The translations under genes and the position numbers were made by a program. DNA of 64,000 nucleotides from the IMG/VR virus record IMGVR_UViG_3300046660_000403, positions 1-64,000 of that record. One strand, written 5' to 3'. Below, piece after piece: positions 2,616 through 31,400 of this stretch; the first letter of the stretch is position 1, and every line of letters starts with the position of its first letter. The DNA comes from a virus. The notes beneath the pieces were generated by a model. That model ran no database searches. It was given only the letters and a program-made list of their open reading frames with translations, and had not been told where the DNA came from.

Positions 2616-4537
2616 GCCGCCCTCGCCATCAGAAGTTCATGCGCGTTGTTCGCCTTGAGGACGGCGACGGCCGGCGGTGGAGACACACTGTTGCCGATCA
2701 TGCGCACCTGGGCGCCCTTGGACAGCCGCTTGCGGACCGTGCGGCCCCTCTTGTCGATCGACGTGTGGAACGGGTCCAGAATGTAATCGGCGGGGAATCC
2801 CTGGGCATTGGCCAGTTCGCGCGGTTGGAGCATGCGCAGGCCGATATCGACCACTTCCATCATTTCGCCGTTGATCTTCACCAGCTCGGGCTGCGCCACG
2901 CCTTTTAGGCTCGGGCAGTACTCCCACAGGAATTCGCGTACTTGCTGGCGACGTTCCAGGTATGCCGGATCGTTCGCCGGCGCACTGGTGAGCGTCGTGC
3001 GTACTTCGCCATGGTGCTGTCCGCCGGCGCTGATGGTGGCCAGCGGCTCGTCGGTGGCAGCAGCATGGCTGGTGCCGCGCAGCTTCACGAGATTGCTGGT
3101 CACGACCGCATGGCGGTTCTCGGTGGTGATGGTCGTCAGCGGGTCCGCAGCGGCCCAGGTCGCGCTGTCGCCATAGCTCTGGTTGTCGATGGCGACGAGG
3201 TGCGCCGTCACCAGCGAATTGTGGTCGACCGTGGTGACGGTGGGCGCTGGTGCGGTCACCGGCGCGCCGACGACGCCCTGGTAGTGTTTCGCCAGGTAGG
3301 CGCAGGTGACGCCCACGCGATCCTTGGTCACGATGGTCGGCATCGGTCCGTTGGCGGCCATGTTCTGCCCGCCACCCTTGTAGTATTGCACCACGGACGC
3401 CGCCACCAGGGCGTGCTTGCCGCCACCGGCGACGATGGTGCCCACCGGGTTATGCAGATCCAGCGCGCGCGGCGCCTGCCCTTCCCGTTCACCATAGCCC
3501 ATCTGGACCATGGTGACGGCCGCGAGCGACATTTCGCCGCGATGCGCACAGGTGATGGTCGGCAGCGGATCGGTCGCAGCACTGGTGCGGTCCGCGCCTT
3601 GGTGCGTCAGCGGCTGGATCAGCGGCGACACTTCGCCGCGTGCGGTCTCCACGATGTAGGGCTGGGCTGCGTCCTTCACATATTTCTCGTAGCCTTTGCC
3701 GACGCGGCGCAGGGTCGCCGGCCGAAGTGGTTTCTTGCGCTCGAAAATGGACGGACACTCGATGGACCAGTCGATGCACTCAGCAGCAGTGCGATATGGC
3801 AGCAGGGTGCCGGCGAGCACCTGGGGCGAATTGCGCGGGCCGTGAGTGGGGGCTGGCCACACGATGGGCATGCCATCGCGGCGCATCACCATGAACAGGC
3901 GCTTGCGGATGGTTGGCGCGCCAAAGTCGCAGGCGTGCAGTGTGCGCCATTCGACCTTGTAACCCAGGCCCCGGATGATTCGCTCGATCGGGAAATCGTC
4001 GCCGAGCGTATCCCTGATCTCCGGCATGTCCGGATGATCTTCGGGCAGGCCGGTGGTCAGCGCCAGGATGAAGGCATTGAACGTGCGGCCCTTGAGTGCT
4101 TTGATGGGCCGGCCGCTTTCATCGAGCGGTCCCCAGCCTAAAAATTCGGCCACATTTTCCAAGAACATCAGGCGCGGGGCGATCTGCACGCCCCACTTGA
4201 GCACCACCCATGCGAGGCCGCGCGTCTTCTGGTTCAGGATGTTGAAGCCCTTCGCCTTCGAGAAATGCGTGCAGGTGGGAGAAAACCACACGGCCCCCAC
4301 CGGGAGGTTGCGGGTGATGAGGCGGGGGTTGGGCAGGAAGACGTCTTCGCGGTAGTGCGCCGTGGTTGGATGATTGGCCGCATGCATGGACAGCGCCTCG
4401 CCGTCATGGTTGATGGCGATGTCGGGCTCCCGTCCGAAGGCCATGCGCAGCGCGGTGCTGGCGCCGCCGCCGCCGGCGAAGTTGTCGGCGATCAGCTCAT
4501 GGCCGAGGTCCAGCGTAAACTGGTCGCGCCCGCTCAT
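2612..4537 (-). CDS. DNA cytosine-C5 methyltransferase
   Basis: DNFAGGGG, SPTCTHFS, ENV, RKR and IGNSV motifs; repeated PLxTIT units in the variable region. Confidence 0.93.
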   Translation of the reverse strand: MSGRDQFTLDLGHELIADNFAGGGGASTALRMAFGREPDIAINHDGEALSMHAANHPTTAHYREDVFLPNPRLITRNLPVGAVWFSPTCTHFSKAKGFNILNQKTRGLAWVVLKWGVQIAPRLMFLENVAEFLGWGPLDESGRPIKALKGRTFNAFILALTTGLPEDHPDMPEIRDTLGDDFPIERIIRGLGYKVEWRTLHACDFGAPTIRKRLFMVMRRDGMPIVWPAPTHGPRNSPQVLAGTLLPYRTAAECIDWSIECPSIFERKKPLRPATLRRVGKGYEKYVKDAAQPYIVETARGEVSPLIQPLTHQGADRTSAATDPLPTITCAHRGEMSLAAVTMVQMGYGEREGQAPRALDLHNPVGTIVAGGGKHALVAASVVQYYKGGGQNMAANGPMPTIVTKDRVGVTCAYLAKHYQGVVGAPVTAPAPTVTTVDHNSLVTAHLVAIDNQSYGDSATWAAADPLTTITTENRHAVVTSNLVKLRGTSHAAATDEPLATISAGGQHHGEVRTTLTSAPANDPAYLERRQQVREFLWEYCPSLKGVAQPELVKINGEMMEVVDIGLRMLQPRELANAQGFPADYILDPFHTSIDKRGRTVRKRLSKGAQVRMIGNSVSPPPAVAVLKANNAHELLMARAA

Positions 4538-4755
4538 ACGGCACCCCGCTGCGACATCGTGGCGGCCGGCAGCTGGATGTTATAGCCGGGGATGACGTGG
4601 GCCACATGGCTGCCGGCCGGCATCGTGCACGGCGCATCCAGCGGGCTCACGAGCAGCGCGTGCACCAGTCCCGAATCCTGCAAGGCGAACGAAAAGTTTG
4701 CATGTGCTTGAAGGATGGAATCGCGGCCGCCCGTCATGTTCGTGGCGCGCCTCAT
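4534..4755 (-). CDS. hypothetical protein
   Basis: ATGA overlaps with both neighbours. Confidence 0.5.
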   Translation of the reverse strand: MRRATNMTGGRDSILQAHANFSFALQDSGLVHALLVSPLDAPCTMPAGSHVAHVIPGYNIQLPAATMSQRGAV

Positions 4756-5084
4756 GCCGCCACCGCCAGCGAGGAAAGCCAGGTACGCGGCGCCATGTGC
4801 AGCGGCGGCACCGATGCGGCCGACACGCGCACAACACGTGGCCGTGGTGGCTGCGTAGGCAGGAAGTAGGTCTTGATGTCGGAGCGGCCCTGCTCATAGT
4901 CGAGCACGCCGTTAGCCTCCAGCTGCTCGACCGCATCGCGCAGATCGCACTGCTTGAGGCGTGGAATAGCGCTCAGCGCCTGTTGCAACTCGCGGATGGT
5001 GAACCCGCTTTTCGCGGTCCGCATTGCATTAATAATAAGTTCCGGGCAAAGCTCCGCCCTCTGTGATACAGTTTCGTTGTTCAT
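4752..5084 (-). CDS. winged-helix hypothetical protein
   Basis: FTIRELQQAL...DAVEQLEANGVL. Confidence 0.6.
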   Translation of the reverse strand: MNNETVSQRAELCPELIINAMRTAKSGFTIRELQQALSAIPRLKQCDLRDAVEQLEANGVLDYEQGRSDIKTYFLPTQPPRPRVVRVSAASVPPLHMAPRTWLSSLAVAA

Positions 5085-5111
5085 AGAACGTCAGTAGTAG
5101 TGGTAAATGGG

Positions 5112-5136
5112 AAGCCCGGTTGCAGCCGGGCTTTTC
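5112..5136. terminator. hairpin AAGCCCGG-N6-CCGGGCTT; terminator-like
   Basis: Perfect 8-bp stem with a T tract on the + strand. Confidence 0.55.
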
Positions 5137-5147
5137 TGCATCCGGCG

Positions 5148-5267
5148 CTATGCCTGGTGGAATAGCTGCCGGTAAGTGGCGCGCTGCCGCGTGACGCGGT
5201 CAGGCTGTTTCGGAATCGCTTCCGAGAGGGGGATGCCCTTCGCCAAAGCTTGGCAAGGGGCGGTCAT
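5148..5267 (-). CDS. 39-aa ORF coupled to the CII-like gene
   Basis: MTAPCQALAKG...; ATGA overlap with the stop at 5264; below the ORF-track size cutoff. Confidence 0.4.
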   Translation of the reverse strand: MTAPCQALAKGIPLSEAIPKQPDRVTRQRATYRQLFHQA

Positions 5268-5584
5268 TTGTATTCGTCGGGCTGGACGTAGACAACGGCG
5301 TCTGCCGGTACGACCTTCAAGCCCAGGCAGGCAAGCAAACGGACGACAAACGCGAGTTGACCGCTGGTTTTCCAGCGCGAGACGGCCGAATCATGCACCC
5401 CCATGCGCTGCGCGACGACCACAGCGGTTACCTCATTCAATCTTTGCAAAATATTACTGTTTATTTTGCGCGTGGCCGTGATGTATTCCTGCGATACTGG
5501 AAACGCTTCAAAGGCCTGCATGCGGGAAAATTCCGCCGCCTGGTCTGCGTCATCATTGCCTGCTGGGGGAACTGCGTCGGTCAT
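5264..5584 (-). CDS. CII-family transcriptional regulator
   Basis: INSNILQRL...VAQRMGVHDSAVSRWK...LLACLGLKVVP resembles lambdoid CII; AGGA RBS. Confidence 0.75.
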   Translation of the reverse strand: MTDAVPPAGNDDADQAAEFSRMQAFEAFPVSQEYITATRKINSNILQRLNEVTAVVVAQRMGVHDSAVSRWKTSGQLAFVVRLLACLGLKVVPADAVVYVQPDEYK

Positions 5585-5740
5585 TACGTGGTCCTGATGG
5601 CGTGGATTGAGTGGGACGTTGATGGGCCTTGCTCTCCGGGGACTTGCCCCATTGCAAGGCCAGCGATGCAGCGCCGGCAATTCAAGTTTCTTCGGATTAA
5701 TATAAATTTAAACTCAATGTTAAAGGAATTGGGCAATTTC

Positions 5741-5782
5741 TACAACTTATTCTTGTAGTGCCGCCTACAACGAAACGTTGTA
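5741..5782. promoter_or_regulatory. two 17-bp operators, TACAAC-N5-GTTGTA
   Basis: 5741-5757 has one mismatch; 5766-5782 has perfect arms; both lie between the divergent CII-like and repressor genes. Confidence 0.75.
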
Positions 5783-5793
5783 ACCTTACGCCC

Positions 5794-6204
5794 ATGACGA
5801 AACTGAAAGATGATGTTGCAGCAGGCTTCCTAGAGAGGCTGACGCAGCTGCTCGACAAGAAAAATAACGGCAACCAGTCAGTGTTAGCCCGCGCCATCAA
5901 AGTGTCGCCGCAAGCGGTCAATCGGTGGTTCTCGGAAGGGCATATTCCGCGCGAAGCCACCCTTAATAAAGTCGCTGCCTACCTGGGCACCACGCCGGCC
6001 TACCTCAAGTACGGCGACGGTCCGGCCGCCGTGCCCGCCACCTATGAACTGATGTACGTCCAGATCGGGCCGGAAACGTCCCTGCTGTCGCATTACAGGG
6101 AAGGCACGGCGTCAGGCAAGGAACAGCTGCTCACCACCGCCGAGCACATCGAAAAACTGCCGGCGGACCAGCTGCCCGCCAATCCCCAGTTAGCCTCGAA
6201 CTAG
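5794..6204 (+). CDS. phage repressor (XRE HTH, no S24 peptidase domain)
   Basis: NQSVLARAIKVSPQAVNRW HTH, AYLKYGDG motif; divergent from the early operon. Confidence 0.85.
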   Translation: MTKLKDDVAAGFLERLTQLLDKKNNGNQSVLARAIKVSPQAVNRWFSEGHIPREATLNKVAAYLGTTPAYLKYGDGPAAVPATYELMYVQIGPETSLLSHYREGTASGKEQLLTTAEHIEKLPADQLPANPQLASN

Positions 6205-6423
6205 GCGTAAAGCCGGTCGCGCCTTGGGCTGCGCCGCGACTGCGCTCGACAGGTACGCCTTCCGCGCAAAGCCCTTGGCCGTACGCAGCAAGAATGCCTG
6301 GTCAACTGGCCGGGCGGTATCGTAGGCGCGCAACAACTCACTGCGCGGGTCGCTTCCCACCTTGACGGCCGATCCATCCCATCCTGTTTTCATTTTTATC
6401 ATACCTCTTGAAATAATTTCCAT
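6190..6423 (-). CDS. small protein, candidate antirepressor (probable start 6393)
   Basis: AGAGGT RBS 9 nt before ATG 6393; similar to the repressor C-terminus; RPALRLVRG tail. Confidence 0.65.
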   Translation of the reverse strand: MEIISRGMIKMKTGWDGSAVKVGSDPRSELLRAYDTARPVDQAFLLRTAKGFARKAYLSSAVAAQPKARPALRLVRG

Positions 6424-6512
6424 ACGGAAAAGAGGTCAATACTTTGCCCTACTAGCAACGTTCGGGCAACCCCCGTTAACTATCATTTAAGCGCAGTGTG
6501 AGATTGTCACAA

Positions 6513-6531
6513 CTGATAGTTTAACTATCAG
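6513..6531. promoter_or_regulatory. 19-bp palindrome CTGATAGTT-T-AACTATCAG
   Basis: Perfect arms in a divergent intergenic region; extra half-site at 6476-6485. Confidence 0.6.
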
Positions 6532-6585
6532 GGCACTTCCTTACCGATAGGAAATGTTTGGAAAGTGGAGTAAACTGGCCCGGCT

Positions 6586-7779
6586 TTGACGCATCCAGAC
6601 CCCAACATGATCGGCCCTCTCACCGCCCCGCCCATTCGCCTCACCCGCGCGGCCCTCACCCAAATCGCACAGCGCCGCCTCACCGTTGAGATTGATGATG
6701 GCTTTCTGGAGCAGATCAAGCGCATCGTCCCCGCCCTGATTGCCGGCTACAGTGAGTGGTCCGGCCCAGCCACGGCGACGTCGGACGCAAGGGTTCGCTG
6801 GCACTGGTACTTCGATGAGGCGCTGCAGCGTTTTGTGGTACCACCGCACGGCGTGCAGTCGAACATCATTCTGGTTGATGGTGATGGCCGCGACGCGCCA
6901 CCCGATGCCCTGGTGCGCCTCATACTGCGCCGCATCCGCCGGCGCCACGACTGGCAGCCCTGGATGCGCCTGGCCACGCTGAACCGCCGAAGCGCCATGC
7001 CCACCGCATCCGTCGCGGCGCCGCGCGGCACCGGCTCACAGATCATGACGCCGGTCGCGCATCGTGACGGCACCTGCCGTTGGGGCAAGCAGGCACTGCG
7101 CGAACTGGAGCAGCTGCCCGACGATCGGAAATTCGCCAGGATCGCCAAGTGGGCGCGCGAATTGTTCGGGTTTCAGCATACGATGGCAGTGGCCCGCTCA
7201 CGCCATGACCCCAACCTGTTCTCTATCGAGGAAAATTTCCAGCTGAAATGGCGTGAAATCTACGAGCGCGAGCATCTGGTGCTGATCGACCCCAGGCTAA
7301 CGTGCGCACATGGCGCCACAACGTGGACGGCGCGTGCGTTGCATGCCCAGAATCCCGCCTTCTGGAACGTCGCCATGGCGCACGGTATTCGCTCGGGTTG
7401 GCTCATGCGGTCCGCCGACGGCAGCGCCGCCCTGGTGCTGTCACGCCCAGATCCGGACATCACCGCCCAAGAGTCCGCCCTGATGACGCCCAACTTGGTG
7501 ATGCTCGCCCATGCGGCTCATGACCTGATGGCGCGCCAGCTGGGCAGCGTGAAGCGGCGCGGCAATGCCCCCTACGAGAGGGCGCTGCCGGAAAATGATC
7601 TGGAGATCATCGCCCACCTGCAGCGGAACAAGCCGCGCAAGGCAATCGCGGCGATGCTTGGCAAAAGCATCGCCACGGTCGACCGCCGGTTACGTGTGAT
7701 CAAGGACAAACTGGGCGTGGACAAAACGACCGACATCGTCGAAGTGGCCGTGCAAATGGGCCTGCTCAAGCCCATCTGA
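6586..7779 (+). CDS. RsaM(DUF4902)-like domain fused to a LuxR-family autoinducer-binding regulator
   Basis: AGYSEW...WHWY...VQSNIILVD...DW at the N-terminus; WREIY...IDP...W...G ligand-pocket residues; C-terminal LuxR HTH. Confidence 0.85.
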   Translation: MTHPDPNMIGPLTAPPIRLTRAALTQIAQRRLTVEIDDGFLEQIKRIVPALIAGYSEWSGPATATSDARVRWHWYFDEALQRFVVPPHGVQSNIILVDGDGRDAPPDALVRLILRRIRRRHDWQPWMRLATLNRRSAMPTASVAAPRGTGSQIMTPVAHRDGTCRWGKQALRELEQLPDDRKFARIAKWARELFGFQHTMAVARSRHDPNLFSIEENFQLKWREIYEREHLVLIDPRLTCAHGATTWTARALHAQNPAFWNVAMAHGIRSGWLMRSADGSAALVLSRPDPDITAQESALMTPNLVMLAHAAHDLMARQLGSVKRRGNAPYERALPENDLEIIAHLQRNKPRKAIAAMLGKSIATVDRRLRVIKDKLGVDKTTDIVEVAVQMGLLKPI

Positions 7780-7780
7780 T

Positions 7781-8770
7781 TCAGCAATCGATTCCAGCGC
7801 CCGTTTTCATGAATTGCGCGTGGGAGAACGGTGTGCGATCACGAAAGCTCGCCGGCACCTCGAATAGCGCCCAGTAGTATTCGCTTTGCCCCAGGCAGTG
7901 CATGGCCGTCCGGCAGTGCTGCATTGGGTCGTCCATCTGGCTTGAATACAGGCCGTCACCGGTGGGGAAGAACGGCACCACGCGGCACTCAAACAGCTCG
8001 CGCAACAGTTCGGCCGGCGCGCCGCGATCACGCGCCCGCTCGAATTGGCGCACCATCATCGCCTCGGTCTGGACCACCATCAGCATCGGCGCGCCATCGG
8101 CGTCGAAAAATAGCAGCCCGATCGGCGTGGCGAACAGGTAGTGCTCGACAAACCCATACCTGTCCATCAGATCCCGCACCAGGGAGTTGAATACGGCATC
8201 GCGGAGAAACCCGTACGCCTCCCCTTCCAGTTTGCGGTGATGCAGCTCGCGCGAGCGGTCGAGAAAGTACGCGTCTTGCAGCCCTTCGATCTCTTCGTTC
8301 AGCCTGCTTAGGCTGGCGTCATCCCCTCGCCGAACAAATCGGTCAATCAGCCCTCGGTTGAAGGCTTCGACTACCTCCTCGTTCGCATCGACGCTGGACA
8401 ACCACACTTTTTTGCAAGGCAAGTGCGAGACGGCTTCGCACGCCTCCATGCCGCTGCCGTTGGGGCGGTTGTACTCCACGACCACGACCGTGGGCGTGCA
8501 AAAGCGGCGCGGGTCTTCGACATAGTTGTAGATGCGCTCCAGATCGCCGGCTTGGGAAAACAGTGCATTGGCTATCTGCACGGGCGCGCCGGCACGCTTG
8601 GCCCGCGAGAAGGAGGACTCCATCCAAGCCACCGCATCCGCCGCGTCGTCAAAACGACGGTGCGCCAGGGCCGGCCGAAAGTGCTCCACGTGCGCTCCTA
8701 GTGGGGCCAGTTCGTCATCGATGAGCACGGTCAGCGTGGGGTGGCGGTAGAGCGGTAACTGAGGGGCCAT
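7781..8770 (-). CDS. LqsR/JqsR-like response regulator with Glu at the phospho-Asp position
   Basis: PTLTVLIDD...PRRF..VVVVEY.RP...KKVWLS...EAFNRGLIDRFV...VEHYL match the LqsR family as I recall it; GGAG RBS. Confidence 0.8.
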   Translation of the reverse strand: MAPQLPLYRHPTLTVLIDDELAPLGAHVEHFRPALAHRRFDDAADAVAWMESSFSRAKRAGAPVQIANALFSQAGDLERIYNYVEDPRRFCTPTVVVVEYNRPNGSGMEACEAVSHLPCKKVWLSSVDANEEVVEAFNRGLIDRFVRRGDDASLSRLNEEIEGLQDAYFLDRSRELHHRKLEGEAYGFLRDAVFNSLVRDLMDRYGFVEHYLFATPIGLLFFDADGAPMLMVVQTEAMMVRQFERARDRGAPAELLRELFECRVVPFFPTGDGLYSSQMDDPMQHCRTAMHCLGQSEYYWALFEVPASFRDRTPFSHAQFMKTGAGIDC

Positions 8771-8867
8771 GCAAATCTCCAGAGCGTGGCCATCAGTATA
8801 TAGCCTTTTATACAACGCACCAAAGTGAAAGTTTCACTCAGGAACTAAACACAGCCAAAACAACAAT

Positions 8868-8924
8868 AAGACATCAATTTAAAGTTGCTATATACTCTGT
8901 AAAAATCAACTTTCAATTGTAATT
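8868..8924 (+). promoter_or_regulatory. promoter AAGACA-N17-TATACT with two operator-like sites
   Basis: ATCAAT-N5-GTTGCT at 8873-8889 and ATCAAC-N5-ATTGTA at 8905-8921. Confidence 0.6.
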
Positions 8925-9097
8925 CGGCGCCACCAGCGGCATCGCAAGAGATAAGGTGACTTTCATTGTAGGGACCGGGCGCCGCCCGTCATCCCTTAAA
9001 CGGTCTGGGGGGACTATGGAAGAAACCTTATCTGTTGCGCCTGCCAGGCGTGCCTCGGCGTGACCGCCAACCGATCACGATCACTCTACCCGGAACC

Positions 9098-9337
9098 ATG
9101 ATCTCTCACCTGAAAACTAGCTTACTCCTGGCCAGCGCGATGCACGCCAATCCGGGCCGCACACGCCAGCCTGGTACGACGATGAGCGCCAACACGGCGG
9201 TCTTGACGCTGCCGCCCTGCATGCAGCCGCTCTCACCCGCCGAAAAGCTCACCTGGCTCGGCATCACCATCATCGTGGTGATCGTCGTGGCCGGCGTCAA
9301 CCAGTGCCCAGGATTGCCACTGCCACCGATTTATTAA
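9098..9337 (+). CDS. small membrane protein (start uncertain)
   Basis: WLGITIIVVIVVAGV hydrophobic segment. Confidence 0.5.
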   Translation: MISHLKTSLLLASAMHANPGRTRQPGTTMSANTAVLTLPPCMQPLSPAEKLTWLGITIIVVIVVAGVNQCPGLPLPPIY

Positions 9338-9352
9338 CCCAGGAGTTCCCGC

Positions 9353-9613
9353 ATGGCCAAAAAGAAGAATGGCGCCATTACGCCCATAGTCGCCTACAAC
9401 ACCAAGATCGCCCCGATTGTGGACCACCTGAACGCGAGTTGTCGGCAGTACGGCATCACCAACTTGACGGCATTCAGCATTCCGGAGACGGCCGATACCG
9501 GGCAGATCGTCGCCAGCGTGCAGCCCGACGCGCAGGGCCGTTTGCCATCTGAGTTCATGGTGATGCTGGCCTACCTCAAGGGCGACACCGGGCTGCCCAC
9601 GCGCACCCAATGA
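9353..9613 (+). CDS. hypothetical protein
   Basis: AGGAG RBS; GC3-rich codon usage. Confidence 0.75.
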   Translation: MAKKKNGAITPIVAYNTKIAPIVDHLNASCRQYGITNLTAFSIPETADTGQIVASVQPDAQGRLPSEFMVMLAYLKGDTGLPTRTQ

Positions 9614-10368
9614 TGCACCGCGGCGCCGTGACTTGCTTTGCGGCGCCGAACCCTCCCTGGAATATGACTCCGACGCAAGCCCTCAAGGAGGTGCGCGCAC
9701 TGGTGGCCAGCGAAGGCTATGCCATCACCGCCCTCACCCTCGCCAATTATCGTAGCGACCTCCTGCGCACCATAGACCTCTATCAACAACAAATCGCTCA
9801 CCCCATGACAGACCACGCCTTGCAAGACAAAGCGGCCGCCGCCGGCCCCAATCCAGACACCACCATCGCGCAGCTGAACGCCACCATCGCGGACCAGCAG
9901 GCCATCATGGACAAAGCCGCATCCATCATCGCCGAAGGGCTGCACTCCGAAGATGGCATCGATGAGGAGGCTGGGAATCAATGCATCGAGGCCATCCGCG
10001 ACCACTTCAAGAGCATCGAGAAGACCACAGTCGAATCAATGGTCGAGACATTATTCGAGCGTATCGGCGCGGCCGCCGGCTTCCCGTCCGGCACGGAATT
10101 CAACCCCCTGCACGTCATCGATCAGATGCGCATCACGATCGTGGCTCAGGCGAAGATCGGCAAGTACCTGGAACGGGCCTTGAAGGGCATTTGGCGCCCA
10201 GGCGAAGGCGACACCCCTGCCGCCTTGACCCTTTCCGAAGCCGGCGCACCGCCCGACGTCCAATACTTCCCCCCGGAAACGACTTGGCTGCAGGCGCTGG
10301 ATGCGACCGCGCCGCCAGTACCGCCGGAGAACGCGGCGCCCGCGCCCTCCCCGGACGCCGGGAAATAA
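9610..10368 (+). CDS. hypothetical phage protein (start uncertain)
   Basis: Coupled to neighbours; coiled-coil stretch. Confidence 0.65.
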   Translation: MMHRGAVTCFAAPNPPWNMTPTQALKEVRALVASEGYAITALTLANYRSDLLRTIDLYQQQIAHPMTDHALQDKAAAAGPNPDTTIAQLNATIADQQAIMDKAASIIAEGLHSEDGIDEEAGNQCIEAIRDHFKSIEKTTVESMVETLFERIGAAAGFPSGTEFNPLHVIDQMRITIVAQAKIGKYLERALKGIWRPGEGDTPAALTLSEAGAPPDVQYFPPETTWLQALDATAPPVPPENAAPAPSPDAGK

Positions 10369-10871
10369 TGGTTCGCTGCCCGGCATACGAATTGGCACGC
10401 ATGCGTGCCGGCTACTGGCATCAGCCGGCGCTAGGCATCGTTACACCCGGCTGTGTGTACTCCCTGCTCACCGAGGACGATTTCTACGCCCCTCGCCGCC
10501 TGCAACGCTTCATCGGCCGTGCCTGCAATGTGCCGGCGCCGATACGCCACCTGGCGGGCTTCGCGCTGGAAGCTGAACACCGAGCGCGGCCCATCACACG
10601 CCTGTACCAGCTCAAGCAGGCGCAGCTGCGCATCGCCGCGCCCGGCTATGACTTCAGCGCGGCCGCCATCGAGCACGCCGCATACTTGGCCGCCGAAGCC
10701 GCCGCGCGCATCGAGCGGCAACAGGCGCATGCCGCCGCCGAGCGACGCGCGCTGGCCAGCTGCGCTAGCCGGCGCATTGCGCACGAGATCGCCGGGAAAT
10801 GCCTCCCAACAGGGGCCGCCGCAAACTTGGCCATGATGCGCCGCTTATTGAACACTGCGGCCGCAGCATGA
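10368..10871 (+). CDS. hypothetical protein
   Basis: TAATG coupling; begins MVRCPAYELARM. Confidence 0.6.
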   Translation: MVRCPAYELARMRAGYWHQPALGIVTPGCVYSLLTEDDFYAPRRLQRFIGRACNVPAPIRHLAGFALEAEHRARPITRLYQLKQAQLRIAAPGYDFSAAAIEHAAYLAAEAAARIERQQAHAAAERRALASCASRRIAHEIAGKCLPTGAAANLAMMRRLLNTAAAA

Positions 10872-11071
10872 AGGCCAAGCGGGCGAAGTGCGCCGCTGCC
10901 GTTCCTGAGCTGACGGATGCGCAACGGCTGGATCACCTGGGTACTGCAGGTGGCTTCCTGCGTGGCACGGCCGATGGTGCAATTGCCTATAGGATTCTAG
11001 GCAGCGATGTATGGCTCGCCGATCTCCGAGAAGCCATCGACGCGCACGCCATGGCGGCCAAACAATCCTAG
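10868..11071 (+). CDS. hypothetical phage protein
   Basis: ATGA coupling; DAQRLD...DLREAID motif typical of phage small proteins. Confidence 0.6.
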   Translation: MKAKRAKCAAAVPELTDAQRLDHLGTAGGFLRGTADGAIAYRILGSDVWLADLREAIDAHAMAAKQS

Positions 11072-11142
11072 TAGCGCCCCTTTTGTTACTGATTTCCCTT
11101 TATTTTTCAAAAACCATATTGAAAAGAACCTTGAGGAAAGAT

Positions 11143-12231
11143 ATGATAGGCAACATTAATTTTGAACCAAGGCAAATTATGCGATCTTTTGATGGGGTGA
11201 AGGCGAAACTCGCCATGGAGCTGACCGGCTTCACTGGCACGCCGAAGACGTTCCGCGCTCGCTATCGCGATTCGACCGATAACTCTCATAAGCTTTATTC
11301 AGCGCAAGAAATTCGGCATATCCGCATGGATTTACTGGGCATCCCCCAAGATACCACGCGTTCGCGCAGCCTCCCACCAATCATCGACACGCGCATGGCC
11401 AAGGGCGGCGTCGGAAAGACGACCATTACTGGCAACGTTGCCAGTTGCCTTGCCCTGTCTGGCTACAAAGTGCTGCTGATCGATGGCGACCCGCAGGCAT
11501 CATTGACATCCCTGTTCGGCATCAACTGGCTGGAAGAAGAAATCACTCATGTTTCCAAGCTGATGCAGCGCGCTGCACGTAACGAACCTGCCAATCCAGA
11601 GCAGGCGGTACGCTCGGTCTACCCAGGCGGCATGCTGGATCTGATCCCAAGCGATATCACGATGGTGGATGACACGTGGCTGATGGGGATAATGAACCGC
11701 GAATTTGCATTCCAACGCCTGCTGGAGCAGGAACTGGAATTCTTTAGCAAATATGACGTCATAGTCATCGACTCTGCTCCGGGTGCCTCCCTGCTTTCCA
11801 CCACCTTTATGGTGGCCAGCAAAACTCTATTAACCGTAGTATCGCCGGAGGGCCAGGCTATCGCAGCCCTGGACGTGCTGGCGTCGAATGTTCAGGAGAT
11901 CAACGCGGCCTTCAACCGCCAGGGCATCAACTTGGATGTGCATATCGTTGTGAATCAATACAACCAGACGAAAAAACCGCACAATTTTTCCCTCTCCAAG
12001 CTACTGGCGAAGTATCCGGACAAGATTAACGACACCATCGTGCGTGACTTCGTCGGTTTCTTGCGCGAGACCGACCCGGATAGCATCCATACCAATGGTC
12101 CCGTGCTGGAAAAGGAGCCCAATAGCGGCGGCGCACGCGACATTATCGACCTGACCAAGTCCCTTACGCGTCTCTACAGTATTCGCTTGGCCGGCGCTGG
12201 CCCGGCCGCCCAGCTGGAGGAAGCCGCGTGA
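11143..12231 (+). CDS. parA: ParA partition ATPase with N-terminal extension (type Ia-like)
   Basis: KGGVGKTT, LLIDGDPQAS and IVIDSAP motifs; GAGGA RBS. Confidence 0.93.
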   Translation: MIGNINFEPRQIMRSFDGVKAKLAMELTGFTGTPKTFRARYRDSTDNSHKLYSAQEIRHIRMDLLGIPQDTTRSRSLPPIIDTRMAKGGVGKTTITGNVASCLALSGYKVLLIDGDPQASLTSLFGINWLEEEITHVSKLMQRAARNEPANPEQAVRSVYPGGMLDLIPSDITMVDDTWLMGIMNREFAFQRLLEQELEFFSKYDVIVIDSAPGASLLSTTFMVASKTLLTVVSPEGQAIAALDVLASNVQEINAAFNRQGINLDVHIVVNQYNQTKKPHNFSLSKLLAKYPDKINDTIVRDFVGFLRETDPDSIHTNGPVLEKEPNSGGARDIIDLTKSLTRLYSIRLAGAGPAAQLEEAA

Positions 12232-13163
12232 GCAAGCCAGGATTCAAGGTATCCGGATTAATCCAATCCGGGCGTGTCGTGCCGGCCACCGGCATCACTC
12301 CATCTGCGGCATTCTCGCCACAGGACGCACCGAGCGGCCCAGAAGCTCCGACCCCTGGAACCGAAATGATGATGCGGCTGGACCTGCTGGATGATAGCCC
12401 CTATCAGACGCGCCTCAAGATTGATCCACTGCGCGTGGACGCCATTGGCCAGTCCATGCTGGCCACGCGCCAGGTTGATCCCATTGAGGTGCGGATTGTC
12501 AAACCGGGGCGCGCAGAAGTCGTCAAAGGGCATACCCGCAAGTACTCGGCCCTGAGCATTGGATGGGAAGAGGCGCGCGTGCTGATTGTTGCCCTGTCCG
12601 ACAAGGAAGCCGCTGCCGCCGTCCTGATCGACAACACCGGCACCCCGCCGCACGACTACGAGTACGGCCGCAGCTTCCGCCGCCGACTGGATGAGAAGCT
12701 GGCGACTACCCAGTCCGAGCTGGCAGTACAAGTCGGCAAGTCTCAGGGCTTCGTGTCCAAATGCCTGTCGATGTTGGAACTGCCCTCGCCTATTCTTGCG
12801 CTGCTGGATGACGAGCCCGGCCTATTTGGTGTGTCTGCCGCCGCCAATATCCAGGCTCTGTGGAAGGCCTACCCGGAACACACGGCGATCATCGTAGAGG
12901 GCGTCAAGCGGTTCAAGGAAGGCGCCGATCAAAATGGCCTGAAGGCCTGGGTGGTTCAGCAGATTTCTAGGCTGGACACTGAGAAGAAAGATGTGAGTAA
13001 TCGCATCATTCCAAATTCTTCCGGCAATACTGCATACGTTACAATAGTGAAGAAGCGCGATATTACTATTCGCTTGGCAGACCGCAATTTGGATCTGGAA
13101 GCGCATCGCGACAAAATAGAATCGTTCCTGCGGACGTTAATTCAGCAGGAGAAAAATAGTTAA
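12228..13163 (+). CDS. parB: ParB partition protein
   Basis: SPYQTR, QVDPI, GHTR motifs and HTH TQSELAVQVGKSQGFVS; follows parA. Confidence 0.92.
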   Translation: MSKPGFKVSGLIQSGRVVPATGITPSAAFSPQDAPSGPEAPTPGTEMMMRLDLLDDSPYQTRLKIDPLRVDAIGQSMLATRQVDPIEVRIVKPGRAEVVKGHTRKYSALSIGWEEARVLIVALSDKEAAAAVLIDNTGTPPHDYEYGRSFRRRLDEKLATTQSELAVQVGKSQGFVSKCLSMLELPSPILALLDDEPGLFGVSAAANIQALWKAYPEHTAIIVEGVKRFKEGADQNGLKAWVVQQISRLDTEKKDVSNRIIPNSSGNTAYVTIVKKRDITIRLADRNLDLEAHRDKIESFLRTLIQQEKNS

Positions 13164-25487: not shown

Positions 25488-28400
25488 TTAGCCGCGTGTT
25501 TCGGCCAGTTCGCGGCTGACCGTCGCCTTGAGCGCCACCGGCGCGCTCTTCTGGGTCCGGTTCGCCGCGTCCTGGCGCATCGACCGCACCCGTTTCAGCA
25601 CGCCCGGCATGCTGACCTTGACGGGCGCCTCCGGGTTCTTCGCGTTCCAGTCGTCGCGCCAGTCACGCGCGGCCTGCACCATGCCCGCATCGTTCTGGGC
25701 GATGCCCTGCGCCCAGTGCTCGGCGATTTCCGCCTGGCGCATGCGCGTCTGCGCCAGCATGTTGAGCGCTTGCCCCTTGGCATCCTGAATATCGGCCGTG
25801 CTGTTGGGCTGGAAGCCGATGATCTTCATGATGCCCTCGGTGGTGCTGGTGTCGTTGACGCGGTAGCCGCGGGCGTCGTTGTAGCTGCCGCTGGCCAGCA
25901 TGTCGGCGCCCTTGATGACGTTGCGCACGGACGCCGGCGACACATCGAGCGCCGCGCCGGCGATATCGCCACCGAGCAGCTTGCCAGCGCCGGAGAACGC
26001 GCGCGCCGCCAAGTCACCAGCCGGGCCTGCCAGCTCGCCCAGATCGCGCGTGTAGCTCTCCTTCTTCTGCAACAGGCCGGTACCGGGAATCAGGTTACCC
26101 ATGCCGAAGCGGCCGGCCACGTCCACCGGCATGCCTGGCAGGCTCGAAATGCCCTTCAAGGCAAAGTCGGCGCCGCCTTGGCCCAGCACGTTCGTCAGGA
26201 AGGCCTGCTTGGCGCGCTTGGTGGCGAAGTTGTAACCCAGGCGTTGCATAATGCCGTCCAGCGCATCCTCCAGATCCTGCTCGAACGGCAGGCCGTCGGC
26301 GCCGGACATCAGGAACAGCACGGCCACCATGTACAGCGCGGCGCGGCGACCGGCCGCACGCTCCTTGGAGCCTGGTTCGCCAGCCATGGCCATGCGCGTG
26401 AGCAGCTCCAGATAGCCGATCGAATACTGCTTGAACGTCAGCAGCAGCGAACCGATGGTGCCACGCGCCCAGCGCGGCTTGTTGCCTGAGTTGTAGGTGC
26501 CCTGCGTTTGCGAAACCGCCTCCTGGGCGAACTTGGCCGGGTTGCCCATGCCCTGCGCGATGGCAGTGCGGTAGGCCGCGATGAAGGTGATGCGGCGGTT
26601 GGCCAACTCGGCCATGGCGAACAGCTTGCCCCAGCCCAGCGAGACCTTGGCCATGGCGTTGTTCAGGTGCGCGCGGGTGTTCCCGGCCAGCGTGCCGTCG
26701 CCGGTACGCAGCGAGCCCTTGCCCGACGCCTGCGCCTGCAGGTAATGCACCTCCTGTGGCGCCACGATGCCCTCGTCCTCGGCCCACTTGAGCGCCGCGT
26801 CCAGATCCGCATCGCCAGTGCTGTCCTTACCGGCCAGTTTCACCGCGTCGGCCAGCGCCTTACCGGCCTTGGCCAAGCCGCCCCACTGGCTCAGGTACGG
26901 CAGCGTCATGGTGAAGGGCTGCGTCAGGTTGACCATGGCTGATGCGACCGAACCGCCCAGGAACTGCGCGAACATCAGCCCGCCCAGTTGGTGGCCGCCG
27001 CCCTCCGGGTTGCGGATGTGCTCGCGCAGCTGCATGGCCGCGTCCGTCAGTTCCCCCTCCTGCTTGGGGATGGCGGTGACGGCCTCGTCGATCTCGCCCA
27101 GGTGGGCGTTGCCGGCGGTCAGGCGGGCATTGCTGTAGATGAAACCGGCCAGCACGCGCCCCGCATCCTCCGAGAAACCGGCGATGCCCTTGCGCTGGAT
27201 CATGCGCTTCATGGCGCTGCGGTTGTTCTTGGCCAGCTTCAGATACGCCTGGTAGACTTCGGTGCTGGCGGCATCGGCCTGGCTGTCCAGGCCCACCATG
27301 GAGCCGAACAGTTCGATCGTCTCGGGCGATACGCCGGCGAACAGTTTATAGGCGTCCTCCGACACCGTGCCCTGTGTCACCAGGGCGCCGGCGTGCGCCT
27401 CGCGCATGTCGCGCGCCATCTTCGCGGCCTCGTGCTGCGACTCGAACATGCCGAAATACACCTGTTCTTCGCCGTCCTGCACGTAGACCGTGTACTTGCC
27501 GAAGCGCGACAGCGGCGCGTAGCCGCGATCCATCAAGCCTTGTCCCTTGTCGGCCAGGTTCATGATCTGGCTGGCCGTGTCGAGGTGCATGTCGGTCTGC
27601 TCCGGATGCAGCTTGGCCAGCGCGATGAAGTGGTCGCGCAGCAGGTTCGCCGCCTGTGCCAGGCTTGGCTCGGCCACGGCCTGCTCTTGCAGGCTCTTGG
27701 CGTCCTTGCCGCCCAGTTTCACCATTTCGCTGATGGTAAGATTGGTCAGGCTCTTGTCGAGCGCGGCGCGGAACTCGCGGTACAGCGCGATCTGCGCATC
27801 GGAGAGGCTGAACTTGTCGCGCAGCTCGGCATCGCTCCACACCACGCCTCCCTGCAGCTGCGTGGCCGTGTAGCGACTGTTGATGCTCGCATCGTAGATG
27901 CCCAATGGGCTGGCCAGCCACGCCTGGTGCTGCTGGTGGTCGATGATGCCCTTGGCCAGCAGGATGCGCGCCTTGTCGGCAGTGCTCATCTGCTCGGCCT
28001 GCGCCTCCAGATCGGCCATGCTGATCGGCGCGCCGTTGGCATCGCGCGCCCAGCTCAGCGTGCCCTCGAAGATCGGCGCGGCGATCGCCTTGCTGTCCTC
28101 GGCGGTCAACGGCTTCTTGCGGTTCTTGCCGATGATGTCGGCGATGTTCTCCAGCTTGGGCAGCAGCGTGGGGGCCATGTCGGCCGCCACCACCGCATAG
28201 CGCGACACGTCGCCCAGGAAGCGCTGCACAGCCTCGTAGACCGGTGCGAAAATCGGGCGGCGCTTGGCCAGGTTGTCCATGGTGCCCAGCGTCTTGTGCC
28301 ACCAGTTGAGCTTGCCGGAGCTGTTGAACAGATCGCCCAGGCGGTAGCCGGCCGGCAGGCGCAGATCCTCGATGCTGTTGGCCGCGCCCGCCAGGCGCTC

Positions 28401-31400
28401 GCCCAGGCCGGTGCGGCTGTATGCGGCCGCATCACCCGCCTCGTTGACCAGCGTATGCACGGTCGGGCTATGGGCGAGGAAGTCCGTGCCCCACGTCGCG
28501 CCGTTCACGCGCGCGGTCTGGGCGTCAGCCGAAACCACGTCCGTGATCACGCCCGCCTCCACCCACGGCGCGAACGCGTCAACGTCGGCGCCTTCGGGCA
28601 GCGCCAGGAAGCGGTGTCCGCCGCTGCCGGTCTCGCGCACCATGCGGCGCAGCACGCCCTTGCCCTTGGCCAAGCCGCGTTTGCTGGTGTCGGTCAGCGC
28701 GCCCATCGGCACGTCCACCAGCAGCTGTACGGCGCCGTGAATGTCGGTCAGCACCAGCGCCGCGTGCCCGGCCGGGATTTGCAAAGCCTTGGCCAGCTGC
28801 GCCACATAGCCCGGTCCCTTGATGGCCACGCCCAGCAGTTGGTGCTCCAGCTCGGGCGCGCCGGTGAAATCGACGCCGTTCAATTCCGGCGCGGCCACCA
28901 GATCATGCGCGCCGGCGGCGTCGATGATGGCGTATTCATTGTGATCGATGACGACGTGCCCGCGCATGCCGGATACGGCAGCGGCGGTGCCGGTGGTCAG
29001 GTCGACGTCAGCGTCGGATGGCGTGGCGCGGCCCGACGGGTGGTTATGCAGCAGGTAGTAGCCATCGGCGCCGAAGCGGGCCTTGTCGGCCGCCACTTGC
29101 GCGTTCAGGTTGTTCGGCGTGCCCACCGATGCCGGCAGGCGCGAGGTGTAGCCGGCCTCGCCGACGATCTGGTCGCCAGCGGTGTAGAGCACGCGGAAGG
29201 TCTCGAAACGGGGATCGCGGTAAACCTGCGCCAGGGCGGCCAGGTCGGCCGGCGTGTGGACTACTTGCCCGACAAGCTCGTTGGGCTGTCCGGCAACGAA
29301 CCCGGCGAGCAACCGGCTACCGAGTACGGTAGCTGCGCCTCGACCAGCTGGATTGCCTTCGCCGATACGATCAACGCCGAGCCGTCGGGAAAGTGCTTCG
29401 ACGGCAGCGCGTCCGGTTCGCAGTTGGGCGTCGGTACTGCCTGGGCGGGTGTCGGTGTGTTCATAGGCGTCATTATAACCGGACGGTCCGGGCTCATGCA
29501 GCGTGCGCGGGGCGCTGCCCTGCCCTTGCGCCGCGGCGTGCTCGGCCCAGGTATCGACCAAGATGGCGCGCACCGCTTCCACGTCGCGCACCAGGTTGGC
29601 GGCGTCCCAGCGCGACCCGCGCAGCGCGCCGATCAGCTTGGCCGCCACTTCCATGAATTTATAGGCCACCTGGCGGAACAGGGAACGGTCGGCCTTGGCC
29701 AGGTCGGACCAGAACACCGGTTCGAGCCACATGGCGCCGTTGATGTCGGCGATCACCTCGGCCTCGGCCTGCTCCATGGGCACGTCCTGCAAGCCGGCGG
29801 CGACGTACTCGCGCAGCTGGCGATCGGCCACCACGCCATCCTTCAGGTGGGCGCGGATGCGCTCGCGCAGCTTGGCCCCGAGTGCCGGGTTCGATTGCTC
29901 CAGGGCGTGCAGCGTCTCGTGGCCGGCGATGGCCAGCACGGGATTGTGCAGGCTTTCCGCCAGGTAGGCGGTGCCGCGATAGGCCACACCCTCGAAGTCG
30001 CCATTGGCGGAGACGAAATTGACGTCGATGCCCAGCGCCTTGCCGGCCTGGCGCGCCAGCGCGAAGCCGGCATTGGGCGCCGTGCGCAGCGCGCGCACCG
30101 GCGCCATGCCTTCCTTGGCCAGCACGCGGTTCAGCTGTTCGGTGGTCTTCTTCGCTGCCAGCAGCTCGGCGCCGGTCAGCACCAGGGGCGCCGCGGTGCC
30201 CGCGTCATGTCCGGCAGGAACGGGCGGCAGGAAGGCGCGCGCCTCATCGCGGAAGTATTCGGCGTCGCGGCTGTACAGCACGCCCGCCAGCGGCGTGCTT
30301 ACACGTTGTAAGAGCCGGTCTGCAACGTGATCCAGTACGTCTCGCCCGCCGTCGCGTCCTTCTTCGCGTAAAACGGCTGCGACAAGTGCCGCTCTCTTAA
30401 GATCAGACACCCCAATCGGAGGCGTATACGCTCCTCGGTGGGATGGAAAGAGTGCGTCATAAGCCCGGCGAAGCGATCCTGCAGCAGCTGCAAAATCCGC
30501 GTCTGTGAAAGGTACTGCATCCACTCGTGCGAGCTGCCCTTCTGCTTCATCAGGGCCAGCAGCGCCTCGTCCGGCAGTGCTTCGATCTCCTCCTGATCCC
30601 AGTCCATCCGCATCAGCTTGTTCTCCTGCAGCGGATTGGTCAGCCAATAGTGCGCCGGAAGATGCCCGAACGGGTGCGGCGTCGCGTTCAAAGCGGGCAC
30701 GGGAGAAGTTGTAATGGACATCGGCGATCTCAGGGAAGACATGCAGGATGTTAGTGTAGGACGAAAGCAGCAGCTCGCGCAAGTTGTGCGCGTCGTCACC
30801 GGTGCGCCAGGCGACCGGGCGCACCGGCACGCCGGTGGCCGTTTGGATCGCTTCCACCTGGCGCGCGTGCGGCGCCAGGTGGGCGGTGGTGCCGTGGCGC
30901 AGCGCCGACGAGATCATCTGCTCGGTGCGGCGGTACAGCGCCTTGTCGGACAGCCCTTGCGGGTCGCCGATGAATACCTGCTTCGTGTTGTGCGCGAAAG
31001 TGGCCACCGCCTGGTAGACCTGGGCGCCCAGCTTGCCCTCCTTCCAGTTGGAGATATCGAGCCAGACTTCCTTGTTCTTGTTGTTTTTGTACACCCAGGC
31101 CAGCTCGCCGTCGGGAGACGTAATCTGCCAGACGCGGTCCACCGGCGTGGCGGCGTCCTCTTCCTCACCCTGGCTGTAGAACTCGTCCACGGTCATGCTC
31201 GGCCCCACTTCGGCCAGCACACCGGCCAGCGTCTTGGCTTCGCTACCAGGCAGGCGGAATGCGTCGTCATCGCTGGCCAGCTGCGAGAAGATATTGACCA
31301 GCTGATCGTCCGTGTCGATGCGCGCACGGCTGAATTGCGCCTCCGCCGGCGCCTGGCGCATGTAGCTGCCGTCCGCGCGGCGCAGCGGGTTGCTGCGCGC

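Follow-up and report, generated by a model that had tools for sequence, protein, structure and literature searches.

Four contiguous genes in a 64,000-nucleotide stretch of viral DNA (the window, which is the first 64 kb of the 76,831-bp IMG/VR virus record IMGVR_UViG_3300046660_000403) form the region for immunity and induction in a Massilia (Oxalobacteraceae) phage-plasmid, which is circular and about 77 kb long. They encode a cI-type repressor, a small open reading frame (smORF), a chimera of an RsaM domain and a LuxR-type receptor, and a regulator of the LqsR/JqsR family. A sequence-only reading had placed these genes at the same positions, and all four were found to be real and contiguous. 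The block is read here, with a probability of about one half, as a quorum-sensing variant of the transcription factor-smORF (TF-smORF) induction module, in which the chimera bound to an acyl-homoserine lactone (AHL) would induce the smORF, whose product would inactivate the repressor. Such a layout would probably let the phage time its outbreak by the cell-to-cell signals of its host. The features of the block are the following:

5794 to 6204, plus strand: cI-type repressor of 136 amino acids (aa), with an N-terminal helix-turn-helix (HTH) and a C-terminal domain of roughly 50 aa (HTH_3 at 2e-8, repressor families phrog_4/8; start set by alignment)
6160 to 6182, minus strand: terminator-like hairpin with a T-run, directly after the smORF stop codon
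6190 to 6423, minus strand: smORF of 77 aa, or of 67 aa from the ATG at 6393 with AAGAGG about 9 nucleotides (nt) upstream; candidate antirepressor with syntenic homologues
6478 to 6530, no strand assigned: conserved cis-elements in the gap between smORF and receptor, namely AACTATCA at 6478-6485 and the palindrome TGATAGTTTAACTATCA at 6514-6530
6482 (end of the -10) and 6505-6510 (-35), minus strand: promoter-like site facing the smORF, from a promoter scan; weak
6607 to 7779 (alternative start 6586), plus strand: RsaM-LuxR chimera of 390 aa, with Pfam, PDB and Foldseek matches
6607-6966, 6967-7050, about 7054-7566 and about 7591-7761, plus strand: domains of the chimera, in this order RsaM/DUF4902, a disordered linker of about 28 residues, AHL-binding domain and LuxR-type HTH
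7781 to 8770 (alternative start 8815), minus strand: LqsR/JqsR-family regulator of 329 aa (PDB 6sy9, 1e-21)
8770-8276 and 8275-7784, minus strand: degenerate receiver and well-conserved output domain of the regulator

The architecture, with the receptor gene divergent from a small ORF beside the repressor gene in a plasmid-like phage, is as the sequence-only reading had described it, and corresponds to a TF-smORF module, that is, a transcription factor gene with a counter-oriented smORF in a plasmid-prophage; it is conserved in six elements. In the Aeromonas plasmid-like phages ARM81ld and Apop, XRE-LuxR/smORF modules situated beside par genes drive lysis, and the smORF inactivates cI (Silpe et al. 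2023, PMC10432266). The block shares with these modules a phage LuxR-type receptor with a counter-oriented small ORF (about 150-200 bp there, 183 bp here), the plasmid-prophage lifestyle and the par genes. It differs from them in the fused RsaM domain, where they have an XRE partner gene, in belonging to a circular phage with an N4-type capsid gene and not to a telomere (telN) phage, and in its cI without an autoproteolytic domain, its added LqsR-family gene and its Massilia host.

The four genes keep the order cI(+)/smORF(-)/chimera(+)/regulator(-), with small genes and then parAB behind them, in two further IMG/VR genomes, L001 and L002 (76,960 and 72,364 bp). They do so too in M. frigida CCM 8695, on a contig of 45.9 kb, and in an 'unnamed plasmid' of Massilia violaceinigra B2 (NZ_CP024609.1; circular, 87,120 bp), where PGAP annotates all four genes, the smORF included. 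The synteny search proposed earlier for this block was carried out and showed it to be conserved in at least five elements. By protein search, more chimeras and regulators turned up on contigs 76.5-79.7 kb long, as well as in M. scottii, M. antarctica and further Massilia isolates from cold habitats.

The N-terminal domain of the chimera has the RsaM fold: it matched DUF4902 (PF16245) at 1.4e-13 and the RsaM homologue in PDB entry 4o2h at 1.8e-9, with a TM score of 0.65 by Foldseek, and its tryptophans W51, W67 and W116 are invariant. It is not a free-standing RsaM beside luxI/luxR, as RsaM is fused to the receptor and no luxI is present in the genome. The autoinducer-binding domain was recognized by Autoind_bind (PF03472) at 8.3e-12 (45 bits against a cut-off of 23). 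RhlR was matched at 5.8e-7 across the ligand-binding domain and the HTH, and Foldseek returned QscR, TraR, RhlR and SdiA. The AHL-pocket residues Trp222, Tyr226, Asp235, Pro236, Trp247 and Gly267/271 (ORF numbering) are invariant in the family and align with RhlR and the host LuxR; the conserved pocket residues of the LuxR family are W57, Y61, D70, P71, W85 and G113 in TraR numbering. RhlR also aligns through the HTH region, for which relatives of the chimera reach the GerE cut-off and the model has four helices with a predicted local distance difference test value (pLDDT) around 90. In the AlphaFold2 model the domains are confident and the linker is disordered; with a predicted TM score (pTM) of 0.45 the model is uninformative on docking of RsaM onto the ligand-binding domain.

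Between elements the chimeras are only 38-55% identical, yet about 80 columns, including pocket and HTH residues, are invariant, which indicates that the fusion is old and under selection. It is not a recent copy of a host gene, since the chromosomal LuxR of M. frigida has only 22% identity to the phage receptor. Fused RsaM-LuxR proteins were found in only 4 of 401 genomes of the bacterial family, the other genomes having separate LuxR and RsaM genes (the tally includes the unpublished genome G085, on which no claim rests). A search for the chimera in the genome contig collection returned nothing, and one in the metagenome contig collection only a distant LuxR. In the 72-kb relative L002 the chimera gene is split by a frameshift in the RsaM domain (L002:9941-11172, near 10275), possibly a genuine mutation and possibly an artefact of assembly.

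The divergent smORF and chimera genes are separated by a gap of 183 bp. Four copies of the octamer AACTATCA occur in the 64 kb, three of them inside this gap (0.43 expected), and two copies form the palindrome TGATAGTTTAACTATCA (6514-6530), which adjoins the -35 of the leftward promoter-like site. This is the position where, we infer, a class II LuxR-type activator would sit. The arrangement of half-site, spacer and palindrome is kept in L001, L002 and L004. The sole other TGATAG-type palindrome of the window is TGATAGCCCCTATCA at 12392-12406, with the counterpart TGACAGCCCCTATCA at L058:14169-14183 in a further relative; it is located at the start of parB in two relatives. Because it is also present in L058, whose factor has no matching upstream motifs, this palindrome is probably par-related and not a receptor site, and it may be a partition site.

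The smORF has promoter-like and terminator-like signals of its own and is convergent with the repressor gene. Syntenic homologues of 73-87 aa occupy the same place in six elements (the window and five others), with A(S/D)(Q/K)A(F/Y)LL.VA in common at the centre and L(R/Q)LV at the C-terminal end, the latter encoded in all six. Its GC content is higher at third codon positions (GC3) than at first and second ones (GC1 and GC2), and its ratio of nonsynonymous to synonymous substitutions (dN/dS), 0.56, is the lowest of the six frames, so that codon-position GC and dN/dS lend modest support to its coding status. The predicted model, of low confidence, is a two-helix hairpin with flexible ends and the C-terminal tail ...KARPALRLVRG. 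This tail resembles the C-terminal ClpX-binding (XB) peptide of Escherichia coli SspB, RGGRPALRVVK (PMC3983244, PMC8808172): the smORF tail follows a Pro/Ala-rich flexible stretch, and the two peptides have RPALRLV and RPALRVV, respectively. The match extends over only 6-7 residues, and the smORF has no SspB substrate-binding domain. Complex prediction for cI and the smORF (score 0.11, mark 0.32) gave no evidence either way. The idea that the smORF mimics the repressor C-terminus was also considered and is unsupported, as the hhalign probability was 0.07% (E 0.72) and the top alignment was the same short stretch. In the M. frigida draft (L004:12532-12800) a 1-nt deletion shifts the conserved ...ERQLRLVRS tail out of frame relative to M. 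violaceinigra.

The N-terminal domain of the repressor is related to the N-domains of the 434 and P22 C2 repressors in PDB. An S24 peptidase (autocleavage) domain is absent from the 136-aa protein, which is thus not a lambda-type CI with HTH and S24, and some antirepressor route is therefore needed. The repressor gene is flanked by the early operon on one side and, beyond the block, by the partition genes on the other:

5264 to 5680, minus strand: CII-like regulator at the head of the early operon, which runs leftward (phrog_725 at 3e-16, Pfam Phage_CII at 4e-6)
5740-5758 and 5765-5783, no strand assigned: two palindromic operators CTACAAC-N5-GTTGTAG, just upstream of the repressor gene
8868 to 8903, no strand assigned: overlapping divergent promoter-like sites, leftward to the LqsR-like gene and rightward to the small genes preceding parAB; consensus matches only
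11011 to 13163, plus strand: partition genes parA and parB, by which the element is recognized as a plasmid-prophage; also found in the relatives

The CII-like gene is divergent from the repressor gene, and its operon continues further left with methyltransferases and an O-like replication initiator. For the operator palindrome, two close matches lie upstream of cI, where 0.75 are expected in 64 kb, and TTACAA..TTGTAA palindromes also occur upstream of cI in L001, L002, L004 and L053. The block had been described as lying between two operator-bearing promoters. This holds for the left-hand one, with its two conserved palindromes; at the right-hand promoter region (8868-8903) promoter-like hexamers and a different inverted repeat were present, and no operator of the cI type was found. 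Past the rightward promoter-like site and ahead of the small par-side genes there is a 27-nt inverted repeat (window 8943-8969 and 9013-9039; arms 81% complementary, with 43 nt between them), which may be an RNA structure or attenuator.

The absence of an autoinducer synthase and a sensor kinase, noted earlier for the window, extends to the complete 76,831-bp record, in which no LuxI, histidine kinase or JqsA homologue was found (a control of the histidine-kinase search was positive in 14 of 14 genomes). On the chromosome of M. frigida, luxR and luxI form a pair that lacks rsaM, and jqsA, jqsS and jqsR form a cluster; LuxI is also present in M. violaceinigra. LuxI is so widespread in the genus (in 29 of 36 genomes) that its enrichment in hosts is uninformative.

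In the proposed induction module, host AHL would bind the chimera at high host density. The AHL-bound chimera would then bind the TGATAG..CTATCA palindrome beside the -35 of the smORF promoter and turn the smORF on. The smORF protein would inactivate the repressor, either by sequestration or by tethering it to ClpX through the SspB-like L(R/Q)LV tail, and the leftward cII/replication operon would be derepressed. The fused RsaM domain could serve as a built-in brake or a second input on the receptor, while the JqsR-like protein would act without phosphorylation, as a receptor partner, or else as a mimic of the host regulator of the alpha-hydroxyketone circuit or a decoy for it.

The homology of this regulator to the LqsR family is clear from the match to PDB entry 6sy9 (1.1e-21, residues 21-319), which covers both receiver and output domain. 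The entry is a 361-aa 'Response regulator', which we take to be LqsR. LqsR of Legionella, JqsR of Janthinobacterium/Massilia and PhcX of Ralstonia are all homologous to the phage protein over the two domains. The phage regulator differs from them in having no adjacent synthase or kinase and in its active site, where Glu (codon 8476-8474) stands at the position of the LqsR acceptor Asp, Ser replaces Thr and Arg replaces Lys. An intact phospho-acceptor pocket of Asp, Thr and Lys is thus missing, and Pfam Response_reg was not detected in the protein. A linked LqsA/JqsA synthase and sensor kinase were not found in the 76.8-kb genome, whereas the host locus of M. frigida has all three genes.

A phylogenetic tree was constructed from 53 homologues. 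The phage-borne copies form one clade (support by the Shimodaira-Hasegawa-like approximate likelihood ratio test, SH-aLRT, 99), nested among chromosomal JqsR and nearest to Massilia-type proteins. One subclade, with M. frigida and M. violaceinigra, keeps the Asp; in the other (SH-aLRT 99), which includes the window, the acceptor site is E (seven sequences), A or K. The Asp-Asp-Asp-Thr-Lys set is kept in 102 of the 102 remaining, chromosomal homologues, the chromosomal jqsR of M. frigida included. In the Asp-less clade the receiver has 32.9% and the output domain 41.7% identity to host proteins, which is the reverse of the host pattern, and output-domain motifs are conserved. With more divergence in the receiver than in the output domain, the regulator appears to be uncoupled from phosphotransfer with its output retained. 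The sequence-only reading proposed that the phage monitors acyl-HSL-like signals and possibly rewires the host alpha-hydroxyketone (Jqs/Lqs) circuit. The first part agrees with the hallmark pocket residues of the chimera and with the LuxI genes of the hosts. Monitoring of the alpha-hydroxyketone circuit by canonical phosphotransfer is not available to the phage regulator, because Glu replaces the acceptor Asp and the clade has E, A or K at this site. No account of a phage-encoded LqsR/JqsR-family regulator was found in the literature.

Variant elements indicate which parts of the block are constant. L058, an IMG/VR contig of 49,000 bp from a relative of this phage, keeps cII/cro, cI, the smORF and parAB; its factor, in the region with cI and the smORF (9203-10633), is a 210-aa RsaM-HTH protein without an autoinducer-binding domain, and no JqsR-like gene precedes parA. 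Similar RsaM-HTH proteins of 221 aa exist elsewhere. The TF-smORF core is the constant part, since L058 keeps cI, the smORF and the RsaM-HTH factor. In the genome G315, a 298-kb contig (L054:7490-13246) carries a chimera and an Asp-type JqsR-like gene as a convergent pair adjoining a homologue (38% identity) of the phage methyltransferase; no LuxI match was found in this genome, and the locus is probably an integrated or decayed relative. An unrelated viral contig (L057:9944-12641; IMG/VR, 81,265 bp, GC 57%) encodes a more canonical RsaM-LuxR chimera (Autoind_bind 1e-36, DUF4902 7e-22), adjoining an HTH_17 excisionase-like gene and a tyrosine integrase. Across these variants the constant core is cI-smORF-(RsaM-HTH factor), whereas the AHL domain moves as a pair with the regulator; fusions of RsaM to LuxR are found repeatedly in viruses.

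A number of results weigh against the induction module. The whole of its wiring is inferred from sequence. The HTH of the window chimera had no GerE match above the Pfam cut-off, and the chimera is frameshifted in one relative, L002. The coding signal of the smORF is modest, with its dN/dS derived from 16 substitutions; the smORF belongs to no known family in PDB, Pfam or PHROGs, and profile comparison revealed no similarity between it and the repressor. In three of its relatives 6-9 more residues follow the LRLV motif, which is terminal in SspB. The modules of Silpe et al. were sought in phages with a RecA-dependent autoproteolytic cI (PMC10432266), a domain that is absent here. L058 shows that the putative switch core would work without an AHL domain or the regulator, and the pair of chimera and regulator can exist apart from the switch, as G315 has it without cI or smORF.

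This last locus also fits a different reading, which we consider rather unlikely. The chimera and the JqsR-like protein would be lysogenic-conversion genes that reprogram the AHL and alpha-hydroxyketone regulons of the host (for example violacein, biofilm or defence) to the benefit of the lysogen; they would have no role in induction, and the smORF would be unrelated to them. A conserved output domain joined to a decaying receiver would suit a protein that constitutively mimics host JqsR or acts as a decoy for it, the phage regulator clade derives from Massilia-type chromosomal JqsR, and RsaM proteins have been described as global repressors of AHL systems (PMC10710839). However, the genes always lie within the immunity region between cI and par, and not in a cargo (moron) position. 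In every case the receptor gene points away from the smORF, conserved cis-motifs lie in the gap that separates the two, and this geometry is that of the published induction modules (PMC10432266).

Still less probable, taken as a whole, is a bolder version of the induction module, in which the cassette would be a physical link between two quorum-sensing families: RsaM would be an interaction module gating LuxR-type factors, the JqsR-like protein its partner, and the smORF a ClpX adaptor delivering the repressor to ClpXP. If true, the chimera would be a natural 'Rosetta stone' for the mechanism of RsaM, and delivery to ClpXP would be a mode of antirepression so far undescribed in TF-smORF modules.

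It is also improbable that what the chimera adjusts to host density is not lysis but the copy number of the phage-plasmid or its partition. TraR bound to AHL activates repABC on Ti plasmids. In line with such a role, the cassette adjoins parAB, the regulator promoter region overlaps the divergent promoter-like site facing the par-side genes, and Silpe et al. found such modules beside par genes (PMC10432266). The conserved motif cluster, however, lies between smORF and receptor and not at the par-side promoter, and the palindrome at 12392-12406, shared with L058, is probably not a receptor site. That the chimera and the pseudo-regulator are functionless relics of a captured host locus, as the eroded receiver active site, the frameshift in L002 and the loss of the ligand-binding domain and regulator in L058 might suggest, is very improbable: many elements have intact frames, in which 80 or more columns are invariant, the output-domain motifs are conserved, and the Asp-lacking proteins belong to a single well-supported clade, which has lasted and diversified.

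So far, the plasmid-like phages in which control of induction by quorum sensing has been worked out are those of Vibrio and Aeromonas. In vibriophage VP882, a receptor copied from host quorum sensing, VqmA(Phage), reportedly drives the small antirepressor Qtip, and the phage has no synthase; VqmA is a PAS-type protein that senses 3,5-dimethylpyrazin-2-ol (DPO) and not a LuxR, and Qtip appears to be unrelated to the smORF of the window. The present phage family would extend quorum-sensing induction to Betaproteobacteria of soil and freshwater and to a different virion type. The earlier statement that this combination had not been described was too strong, as an RsaM-LuxR chimera of Massilia (PMC10710839) and LuxR-smORF modules of phages (PMC10432266) are both in the literature. 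Venturi et al. (2023) described the 'type 8' RsaM-LuxR chimera in two Massilia species and treated it as a bacterial LuxR solo (PMC10710839). The phage chimera shares with it the DUF4902 fold (PDB 4o2h) and the order N-RsaM/autoinducer-binding/HTH, and the proteins of M. frigida and M. violaceinigra are evidently the chimeras of that review.

Beyond that review of RsaM, TofM and BcRsaM, the chimera is located here on phage-plasmids, in the immunity region and paired with a JqsR-like gene, and RsaM-HTH forms without the AHL domain exist. The only known RsaM-LuxR chimeras are thus shown to be phage-borne. New are the phage context, the JqsR-like phage clade without the Asp, the L058 variant and the conserved smORF tail resembling the ClpX tether of SspB. 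The review leaves open how repression of AHL systems by RsaM comes about (PMC10710839). A direct action of RsaM on LuxR-type factors is argued for by the natural fusion and by the shorter RsaM-HTH form, which also provide a construct with which this action can be tested. The single loss of the phospho-acceptor in the phage regulators is a clean natural experiment in which a virus has uncoupled a host signalling protein from its kinase. M. violaceinigra B2, a cultured host with a finished genome, makes the proposed induction module testable.

The record as a whole, which has direct terminal repeats and is rated complete, encodes the O-like replication initiator, DNA methyltransferases, a tyrosine recombinase and tail-fibre, internal-virion and portal proteins. 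The ParA/ParB DNA is 65-72% identical to that of Janthinobacterium and Massilia plasmids (ParA, 71% nucleotide identity). Since phage structural genes, parAB and the O-like initiator occur together and the circular M. violaceinigra B2 plasmid is a relative, the element was assigned to the phage-plasmids of Massilia-type Oxalobacteraceae. Neither blastn against phage records nor Rfam over positions 4500-11500 gave a match. In a search of sequencing runs no RNA dataset was listed as carrying the sequence, and the only full match was a rhizosphere metagenome, from which the record may itself derive.

The B2 plasmid is the closest finished relative and carries an N4-gp56-type capsid gene, a tail fibre, a GH19 lysin and a 5,555-aa PLxRFG protein. 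It also has histidine-kinase, response-regulator and H-NS genes and IS66 insertions (L055 83296-86421; L056 14686-15075, 49003-49311) that are absent from the window. At the place equivalent to that of its 'PLxRFG domain-containing protein', the window has a single ORF of 5,272 aa (25488-41306, minus strand), the product of which is probably a giant virion or ejected protein.

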